The notes under the pieces were generated by a model. It saw only the letters and a program-made list of their open reading frames with translations. It searched no databases and was not told where the DNA came from. A DNA stretch of 64,000 nucleotides, from the sequence record NC_054920.1. One strand, given 5' to 3'. Below are positions 7,676-8,386 of this stretch, piece by piece. Source of the DNA: Escherichia phage vB_EcoM_G9062. Positions within the stretch are counted from its first letter, which is position 1. Every line of letters starts with the position of its first letter. A program made the translations under genes and the position numbers.

Positions 7676-7694
7676 TTTATTCTCCTCAGTAGTA

Positions 7695-7722
7695 GATAGG
7701 GTAATAGTATCACTACCCTATC
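7695..7722 (-). repeat. Conserved intergenic hairpin module, copy A
   Basis: GATAGGGTA-ATAGTATCAC-TACCCTATC (9-bp stem) between the CTS gene and the small membrane protein gene. Confidence 0.7.
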
Positions 7723-7733
7723 TAAAAGTAAAC

Positions 7734-7967
7734 TTATTTTTTACGAAAAATTGATTTATTTTCTGCTGCCCATTTTTCAATAACTGCAGCAGGACCAGTA
7801 ACAACAATTTTATCACCGTAATCTTCTGCGGCGAGTTGACCGAAATTATCTAATGCATCACGAAGAACTCCATGAGGCATTTCACCCATTTTATCTTTCT
7901 TGCCAGTGTAAATAAACTCAACTTTTACATCAGCAGTTTCAGCAATAAATTCTTGGTAAGTTTTCAT
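7734..7967 (-). CDS. Internal-protein-like capsid-targeted protein (about 77 aa from the MKTYQEFIAE start; ORF extends to 7979)
   Basis: Contains MKTYQEFIAE, the T4 IPI-type capsid targeting sequence, then a divergent body; sits in the hyperplastic locus next to 57B. Confidence 0.65.
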   Translation of the reverse strand: MKTYQEFIAETADVKVEFIYTGKKDKMGEMPHGVLRDALDNFGQLAAEDYGDKIVVTGPAAVIEKWAAENKSIFRKK

Positions 7968-7992
7968 TTTGATTTCCATTTGGTTTTGTTTT

Positions 7993-8055
7993 GATAGGGT
8001 AATAGTATCACAACTAAAACCCTATGTAAACAACTTTGTGAAATTATTTTAAATC
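7993..8055 (-). repeat. Conserved intergenic module, copy B (hairpin plus shared 3-prime UTR/stop region)
   Basis: GATAGGGTAATAGTATCAC...CCCTAT followed by TGTAAACAACTTTGTGAAATTATTTTAAATC, which on the minus strand encodes the C-terminal DLK-stop of the 8044-8301 gene. Confidence 0.7.
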
Positions 8056-8301
8056 TTCTAATCGTTTCTTCATCTTAGAACCATTTTTAGCAATTTCTCC
8101 TGCATCGGAGCATAATGCTAAAAGTGCTTTAACTTTAGTTTGGTCTCCTTTAAAAGATGAAGGATCGACCGCAGCAGCAAGTTCTTTAATACGAGAGAAA
8201 AGACGCTCAGCTTCAGCTAAAGCCATTCCAAGCTTTACTTCCATACCGTGGGAAGATTCAGTGATAGTAGTTTTTGTAGCAAACTCTTTGAAAGTTTTCA
8301 T
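8044..8301 (-). CDS. Internal-protein-like capsid-targeted protein, 85 aa
   Basis: N-terminus MKTFKEFATKTTITE (CTS-like); C-terminus ...DLK-stop lies inside a repeated 3-prime module shared with 57B. Confidence 0.6.
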   Translation of the reverse strand: MKTFKEFATKTTITESSHGMEVKLGMALAEAERLFSRIKELAAAVDPSSFKGDQTKVKALLALCSDAGEIAKNGSKMKKRLEDLK

Positions 8302-8323
8302 TTTTATTTTCCTAATTAATTTT

Positions 8324-8386
8324 GATGAGGTAATAGTATCACTACCTCATCAGTATGTAAACAACTTTGTGAAATTATTTTAAATC
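8324..8386 (-). repeat. Conserved intergenic module, copy C (after 57B), with compensatory stem substitutions
   Basis: GATGAGGTA-ATAGTATCAC-TACCTCATC, with stem GATGAGG/CCTCATC versus GATAGGG/CCCTATC in the other copies; followed by the same TGTAAACAACTTTGTGAAATTATTTTAAATC. Confidence 0.7.

Follow-up and report, generated by a model that had tools for sequence, protein, structure and literature searches.

The stretch of DNA analyzed here, hereafter the window, comprises 64,000 nucleotides of Escherichia phage vB_EcoM_G9062 (NC_054920.1), belongs to a Tequatrovirus (T4-like) genome, and holds between genes 57B and trna.4 the classical hypervariable ipI locus of T-even phages, in the configuration 57B/acb1 > ip5 > ip6 > trna.4. 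We read this region as an ipI locus in which two small internal proteins, Ip5 and Ip6, are probably packaged into the virion, each gene is served by a module that combines a putative early promoter with a stem-loop, and promoter-plus-gene cassettes are gained, lost and exchanged by recombination. We assign this overall reading a probability of about 0.85. Approximately 1.5 kb of the locus is 100% identical in many Tequatrovirus genomes: positions 7400–8900 show 100% identity with Yersinia phage PYPS2T and with E. coli phages D5505, ES21, a15 and others, and 99.9% identity with Shigella phage JK08. Every gene of the locus lies on the minus strand, in the order 57A, 57B, an 85-aa open reading frame (ORF), a 77-aa ORF and a trna.4 homologue, downstream of which are two further small ORFs and then the tRNA cluster (Table 1). 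57B is the conserved upstream anchor, and the two ORFs between it and trna.4 occupy the same place as ipI in T4.

Table 1 Features of the ipI locus, in positions of the window; assignments follow from sequence matches and motif layout
Feature	Position	Strand	Basis or remark
57A	8830–9060	-	Upstream neighbour of 57B
57B, anti-CBASS protein Acb1	8375–8833	-	Pfam PF23474 (Acb1), 2.7e-60; annotated as Acb1/57B in related records
ip5, predicted 85-aa internal-protein precursor	8044–8301	-	phrog_3499; Ip5 of RB70 and T2
ip6, predicted 77-aa internal-protein precursor	7734–7967	-	phrog_8111; matches to Ip6
trna.4 homologue, 61-aa membrane ORF	7490–7675	-	phrog_1692; conserved downstream anchor of the locus
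Module C, putative early promoter of ip5	8302–8386	-	Motif layout, hairpin, 34-nt pattern
Module B, putative early promoter of ip6	7968–8055	-	32-nt repeat shared with C, promoter scan, fold
Module A, putative early promoter of trna.4 homologue	7676–7733	-	Motif layout, hairpin, 34-nt pattern
32-nt exact direct repeat	8355–8386 and 8024–8055	-	2 matches, 0 expected; brackets the 331-bp ip5 cassette
Late-promoter-like TATAAATA	9416–9423	-	Inside gene 1

The initial annotation, made from the sequence without database searches, had pointed to two small genes beside 57B that start with a capsid targeting sequence (CTS) but have unfamiliar bodies. Both ORFs were confirmed at the positions it gave, on the minus strand and next to 57B, and their bodies proved to be orthologous to named internal proteins (IPs). 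The 85-aa protein, which starts MKTFKEFATKTTITE..., shows 92% identity to the Ip5 of phage RB70 (UniRef Q38378) and 99% to that of T2, and the 77-aa protein shows 78–100% identity to proteins named Ip6 or internal (core) protein. The same genes are annotated as ip5 and ip6 in JK08, and the first of them as Ip5 in RB9. In the PHROGs database, the two proteins fall into families annotated as "internal head protein" (phrog_3499, 1e-49) and "internal virion protein" (phrog_8111, 1e-52), respectively. From this orthology and from their position in an IP locus, the two ORFs are identified as Ip5 and Ip6 and are not novel proteins. Ip6 starts with MKTYQEFIAE, which we take to be the CTS of T4 IPIII. 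In both proteins, residue 4 is aromatic and residue 7 is Phe (MKTYQEF in Ip6 and MKTFKEF in Ip5), and in T4 IPIII positions 4 and 7 serve targeting while positions 8 and 10 serve processing (PMC9026906). Both also contain the gp21 motif (L/I)-x-E, as I8-A9-E10 in Ip6 and I13-T14-E15 in Ip5, where an insert of five residues precedes the motif and the ITE is invariant in all four homologues compared. Cleavage by gp21 is predicted after E15 in Ip5 and after E10 in Ip6, leaving mature proteins of ~70 aa (isoelectric point 9.2) and 67 aa (isoelectric point 6.5). AlphaFold models show a two-helix hairpin for Ip5 (pLDDT 72) and a small alpha/beta fold for Ip6 (pLDDT 83). In the structure prediction and hidden Markov model searches that the initial annotation had recommended, the PHROG families of internal proteins were found, Pfam and NCBIfam had no match for either protein, Foldseek against the PDB returned no match at E<0.001 for either model, only generic non-significant ones, and a PDB sequence search had none at E<0.7. 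A literature search found no virion proteomics of phages carrying Ip5 or Ip6. By homology with T4 IPI–III, the CTS would take Ip5 and Ip6 into the prohead core, the gp21 protease would remove it there, and the mature proteins would be injected with the DNA.

Three repeat copies accompany these genes: A (7691–7761), B (7989–8059) and C (8320–8390), the last of which includes the final codons of 57B (D-L-K-stop). A 34-nt pattern, GTTTAC-N14-GTGATACTATTACC, occurs three times in the window against 0 expected. On the coding strand, a stop codon within A/T-rich sequence is followed in turn by TTTCACAAAGTT, GTTTAC, 18 nt with TGA as the last three, TACTAT, ~20–30 nt, a Shine-Dalgarno sequence and ATG. 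T4 early promoters are of the UP/-35/TGn/-10 type (Hinton review, PMC2988021), and by its motifs the module is such an early promoter, lying after the stop codon of one gene and ahead of the Shine-Dalgarno sequence and ATG of the following gene, with an A/T-rich (UP-like) upstream region, -35 GTTTAC, TGn and -10 TACTAT. A promoter scan returned TTTACA-17-TACTAT with an upstream TG in B and C, and the TG dinucleotide is invariant in 34 of 34 unique modules from related phages, though it lies outside the search pattern. What had been described as an element of the 3′ untranslated region is therefore, on the coding strand, the putative early promoter of the next gene, and the supposedly untranslated shared stretch, TCACAAAGTTGTTTAC, recurs at ordinary early promoters elsewhere in the genome. 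The hairpin of the earlier description is present, but its "conserved loop" ATAGTATCAC is the extended -10 element (GTGATACTAT), and its arms lie in the promoter spacer and immediately downstream of the -10. The A/T-rich region of each module overlaps the stop codon of the preceding gene, and the inverted repeat wraps the -10 element, which makes it a module like the promoter-early stem-loops (PeSLs); each gene would thus have a strong early promoter of its own. T4 ipI is preceded by a module identical to C in promoter and leader.

Within module C, an A/T-rich region containing the stop codon is followed by the -35 (8357–8362), TGn and the -10 (8333–8338), hairpin arms at 8343–8352 and 8323–8332, and a leader with the Shine-Dalgarno sequence AGGAAA. 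In module B, the -35 lies at 8026–8031 and the -10 at 8002–8007; its upstream 32 nt are the same as those of C, and its hairpin is shifted in register (arms 8019–8025 and 7994–8000, plus inner and outer stems). Module A has its -35 at 7728–7733, its -10 at 7704–7709, an 11-bp hairpin (arms 7714–7724 and 7693–7703) and the Shine-Dalgarno sequence GAGGAG. The initial annotation had counted one near-identical module of about 60 bp after each of the small genes and after 57B. Three copies do exist, but near-identity is limited to B and C (86% over 71 nt); copy A, which follows ip6, has 61% identity and shares only GTTTAC, the hairpin and the -10 core. Likewise, the D-L-K-stop and the TTTCACAAAGTT stretch ascribed to all copies are common to B and C and are missing from A, where the preceding gene ends in RKK-stop. 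The hairpin thought to be the same in A and B differs between them: the 5′ arm of B (ATAGGG) lies 6 nt further upstream, and B folds either as a composite 17-bp stem of three segments with internal loops or as a 7-bp stem with an 18-nt loop.

Two side observations concern the makeup of the modules. The spacer of B (7998–8031) reads ATAGGG-TTTTAG-TTGTGA where that of A (7700–7733) reads TTTTAG-ATAGGG-TAGTGA; the first two hexamers look swapped, which preserves the promoter spacing while shifting the 5′ arm 6 nt upstream, and the ipI > trna.4 junction of T4 has the B-type arrangement. In addition, many genes of the locus end in ...LK-stop (TTAAAATAA), as in 57B (...DDLK, 8375–8386), Ip5 (...EDLK, 8044–8055) and a 90-aa IP family (...IYLK), and further genes at the related loci L005–L038 end in ...WLK or ...RGIK. 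The A/T-rich region upstream of the next promoter extends into these codons, so that the C-termini at this locus seem to be constrained by promoter sequence.

With 57B as the anchor, 36 loci from IMG/VR and three reference phages showed how variable the interval is. Between 57B and trna.4 there are 0–5 CTS-bearing ORFs, in many combinations and, in a set of 40 loci, from roughly twenty families, a count that is approximate since single-linkage clustering over-merges short IPs through their shared CTS. T4 carries ipI alone, RB9 carries ip5 and ipI, slur02 is empty, locus L033 has a 102-aa IP, and locus L034 has ip6 alone. L034 corresponds to the window minus exactly 331 bp (8056–8386), that is, the ip5 cassette, with 1 mismatch in 1368 flanking nt, and the breakpoint of this indel falls within the 32-nt perfect repeat; the breakpoints of T4, RB9, slur02 and L033 also lie in modules. 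The modules themselves are mosaic, the 5′ half traveling with the upstream gene and the 3′ half and leader with the downstream gene. Hybrid modules with unpaired arms place crossovers in the conserved -10 core. Recombination in T4 is known even at very short homologies (PMC9391042). Because the modules are repeated, homologous recombination through the 32-nt identity and the conserved -10 core would delete, insert and swap entire promoter-plus-gene cassettes. Alignment of the locus across relatives, which had been suggested as a way to see exchange at the hairpin repeats, thus bears out the proposal of a recombination-prone locus, in the numbers of cassettes, in the exact indel of L034 and in the hybrid modules. 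As judged from these alignments, the locus is a recombination-prone cassette array of CTS-bearing, presumably injected proteins.

The hairpins are stable and conserved as structures. Relative to shuffled sequences, RNA folding gave -18.5 kcal/mol for A (z -4.87), -18.1 for B (z -4.51) and -17.4 for C (z -4.35), and DNA folding gave z between -3.2 and -3.6 for both strands. Three base pairs, each altered on both arms, distinguish stem A (TAGATAGGGTA/TACCCTATCTA) from stem C (TGATGAGGTA/TACCTCATCA), which upholds the compensatory change noticed at the outset. An ungapped alignment of the 34 unique modules from related phages, with columns 12–20 paired with 31–39, contains 30 double-change cells, whereas shuffles gave 18±3.3 and none of the 500 reached that number. 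Pairing amounts to 60.8% in a single register and to 29–46% at slid positions of the partner. That register is shared by at least six stem sequences that are perfectly complementary yet unrelated to one another, and the symmetry axis is fixed relative to the -10 (i+j=51 in most variants). Conservation of the hairpin repeats in related genomes, which the initial annotation had made a test of its view, therefore stands above both the shuffled and the slid controls. Such structure is lacking at 12 of the 13 other GTTTAC-N18-TAnnnT sites in a 50-kb stretch of PYPS2T (z -2.7 to +1.7). Hairpin-bearing promoters also precede some non-IP genes in T4-like phages. An intrinsic (Rho-independent) terminator was rejected for want of a U-tract, and an operator for a dimeric DNA-binding protein was rejected because the arms covary rather than stay conserved; Rfam gave only one sub-threshold chance match.

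Elsewhere in the window, early-promoter-like sites at 3783–3837 and 271–325, both on the minus strand, have an inverted repeat around the -10. The site at 3830 has the arms AGGCTCAT/ATGAGCCT and an RNA z of -4.59, and the site at 318 has an RNA z of -3.86; a neighboring promoter at 4167 is without an inverted repeat (z +1.08). Promoters of this hairpin design therefore also occur outside the ip5/ip6 interval. At four related loci (L004:4666, L009:4666, L020:4672 and L035:4789), the promoter before trna.4 has a different, long-range stem, in which ATCTCCATTTGG directly after the -35 pairs with CCAAATGGAGAT overlapping the ribosome-binding site of the next gene.

Transcription should start at about the A of CTATC, inside the 3′ arm, to judge from the position of the -10. 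The hairpin would therefore be unable to form in RNA from its own promoter, which leaves only DNA, or RNA that reads through from upstream, for it to form in. We suggest that the most likely place of action of the stem-loop is sense-strand RNA reading through from promoters upstream, where it would insulate each cassette as an attenuator or 3′-end stabilizer, and we give such an RNA-level role slightly less than even odds. Isolated interior mismatches were counted in the stems of 202 unique modules from T4-like loci, each (register, column) event being counted once. On the sense strand, G·T mismatches outnumber A·C mismatches by 16 to 4 (p=0.012), and in stems with at least nine Watson-Crick pairs by 10 to 0 (p=0.002). 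Either type of mismatch would do the same damage to a double-stranded cruciform, whereas G·U is tolerated in sense RNA, and the bias therefore favors a role in RNA. The finding that a PeSL stem-loop acts as a terminator/attenuator in a lacZ reporter (PMC2839356) agrees with this.

Several findings weigh against our reading of the locus, in its hairpin part or in its packaging part. The promoters pooled for the mismatch counts come from many sites of the genome and from related phages, the events counted are not fully independent, and single-stranded non-template DNA would give the same G·T bias. The stems are followed by CAAAAC or CTACTG, with no U-tract, and 7000–9500 contains no intrinsic-terminator-like site; any termination at the stems would be non-canonical. 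Natural hybrid modules with unpaired arms exist at the ip5 > ipI junction of RB9, at L027:4472 and at L018:5177, and the phages can therefore do without the hairpin, at least for a time. Arbiol et al. regard the T-even elements as analogues, not homologues, of the PeSLs tested in RB49 and phi1. Finally, no late promoter stands directly upstream of ip5 or ip6, and none of the TATAAATA type occurs between 57B and trna.4; the late expression needed for packaging must therefore derive from read-through or from continued use of the early promoters. The nearest candidate source of late read-through RNA across 57A-57B-ip5-ip6 is the TATAAATA motif in Table 1. The leaders of the genes also differ: that of the trna.4 homologue (7676–7692) contains GAGGAG, whereas those of ip5 (8302–8322, AGGAAA) and ip6 (7968–7990, TGGAAA) are without GGAG, the motif cut by the T4 RegB endoribonuclease. 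The absence of GGAG might let translation of the IPs persist late.

Other explanations of the inverted repeat were weighed against a role in read-through RNA. The best surviving of them, although distinctly unlikely, acts in DNA: extrusion of a cruciform or hairpin that is cut by a structure-specific nuclease (e.g., T4 endonuclease VII) or stalls replication would create a recombination hot spot and drive cassette exchange. Such a hot spot would suit the crossovers that map inside modules, including the -10 core between the arms, as well as the stability of the stems as DNA (z -3.2 to -3.6) and the mini-circles reported for PeSLs of RB49/phi1 (PMC2839356). However, in a symmetric cruciform a G·T mismatch should be as harmful as an A·C mismatch, whereas a strong G·T bias is seen on the sense strand; plain homologous recombination between the 32-nt direct repeats fully explains the 331-bp indel, T4 recombining even at 2–10 bp homologies (PMC9391042); and hybrid modules with broken palindromes persist in nature. 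Less likely again is that the inverted repeat matters at the promoter itself, through arms placed around the -10 relative to RNA polymerase. The exact flanking of the -10 by the arms and the fixed symmetry axis are what this would predict, and the G·T bias fits single-stranded non-template DNA too, but most other strong early promoters of the genome are without such structure, and both the shifted variant B and the variants with long-range pairing to the ribosome-binding site break any fixed geometry with respect to RNA polymerase.

We attach little probability to a third explanation, in which the arm changes come from quasipalindrome-templated mutation, a mechanism known from work on T4 rII: intrastrand template switching copies one arm to the other, and the palindrome would be a self-perpetuating by-product without selection. 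The concerted multi-base differences between stems A and C are of this kind, and copy B, which looks like copy A with the hexamers TTTTAG and ATAGGG exchanged, suggests rearrangement over stepwise point mutation. This mechanism leaves unexplained why palindromes are concentrated in modules and absent at most other early promoters, why G·T is favored on the sense strand, and how at least six unrelated stem sequences keep one register. Very improbable, with regard to packaging, is that Ip5 and Ip6 are ordinary early cytoplasmic proteins whose CTS-like N-termini persist only as part of the recombining module. In favor of this, the window and T4 are identical from the promoter to roughly 20 nt into the coding sequence (8282), where they diverge, and the promoters directly upstream are all early ones. 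Against it, the targeting and cleavage positions are kept despite differing N-termini, the ITE of Ip5 is retained after its five-residue insert, and the same promoter and leader precede T4 ipI, whose product is known to be packaged.

The architecture of this locus has already been known since 1994, as later papers describe the work of Repoila et al. (EMBO J 13:4181; Repoila, Tetart, Bouet, Krisch), to whom the names Ip5 and Ip6 are attributed and who are credited with the observation that IP genes are flanked by repeats of an early promoter and a stem-loop, proposed to mediate shuffling (PMC2839356, PMC4122927). Such elements were later called PeSL-like. As summarized in those two papers, that locus lies next to 57B as it does here, with the same gene names, a matching CTS leader and promoter plus stem-loop repeats, and the summaries reveal no substantive difference from the window. 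Arbiol et al. (2010) described T-even elements based on T4 early promoters, with weaker A/T-rich stem-loops, as possibly being behind the plasticity of the IP locus (PMC2839356), and Comeau et al. (2014) restated the earlier work of Repoila et al. (PMC4122927). What the present analysis adds, namely the sense-strand G·T bias, the crossovers placed in the -10 core by hybrid modules, and another two ORFs with a CTS (see below), should be taken as leads, not discoveries.

The PeSLs of RB49, phi1 and other T4-like phages (Arbiol et al. 2010; Comeau et al. 2014) share the anatomy of the modules of the window, with a stop codon in an A/T-rich region, -35 and -10, a stem-loop often over the -10, a Shine-Dalgarno sequence and ATG, and they likewise flank small variable ORFs and coincide with indels. 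In contrast to them, the T-even modules have the GTTTAC early promoter and weaker, A/T-richer stems without polyG/polyC (PMC2839356), and it is only for the RB49/phi1 elements that terminator activity and mini-circles have been demonstrated. Integron gene cassettes are also similar, in that small promoter-adjacent adaptive genes are separated by imperfect palindromic repeats and are gained and lost. However, the locus of the window has no integrase or attC-type site-specific system, each of its cassettes has its own putative promoter, and exchange is explained by homologous recombination between repeats. Ip5 and Ip6 share with T4 IPI, IPII and IPIII the N-terminal CTS, the small size and the position in an IP locus, and Ip5 also shares the promoter and leader of ipI; in contrast, their mature bodies resemble no solved structure in sequence or fold.

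It is a standard idea that diverse IPs act against restriction by the host (PMC3012670). IPI* inhibits GmrSD, and Ip2 and Ip3 inhibit distinct GmrSD subtypes (PMC12373910). To extend the idea to Ip5 and Ip6, as the initial annotation did, is reasonable, but it is an old hypothesis, and we regard an anti-defense role for the two proteins as evenly balanced. Neither resembled IPI* in the PDB sequence (E<0.7) or Foldseek (E<0.001) searches. Silas (2025) assayed ip4–10 against a panel of GmrSD type IV enzymes and obtained no reproducible inhibition (PMC12373910), a result that is matched to the genes of the window by gene name, not by sequence.

Other parts of the genome bear on the same question. 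In the near-identical PYPS2T, gene e (lysozyme; 323–817 in the window) is directly followed by denV, and therefore the classical ipII/ipIII locus between e and denV appears to be empty in the lineage of this phage. Immediately beyond the tRNA cluster, and thus not in either classical IP locus, there are two more ORFs with CTS-like N-termini, both on the minus strand: one of 187 aa at 4323–4886 (MKTYAEFLTE...) and one of 157 aa at 5012–5485 (MKSYTQFLNE...). Both have Y4, F7 and L8-x-E10, match phrog_2280 ("unknown function") and are named "hypothetical protein" in every record listed. Their region varies in presence, 126 of 590 records covering at least 80% of it. From their N-termini, these ORFs may be unannotated internal proteins. 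A combined proposal, which we consider unlikely as a whole, would make the hairpin a sense-strand RNA element that tolerates G·U but not A·C and serves as a U-tract-less attenuator or 3′-end protector, each cassette being an autonomous unit; would have Ip5 and Ip6 inhibit defenses beyond the tested GmrSD variants; and would join Acb1 and the CTS proteins at 4323–5485 with them in an anti-defense island extending beyond the two classical IP loci.

Injected internal proteins are the first counter-measures of the phage, and T4 Ip1, Ip2 and Ip3 each disable a different GmrSD enzyme. A cassette locus of the kind described here explains how T-even phages swap such functions fast, an established point that bears on host range and on the design of phage therapy.

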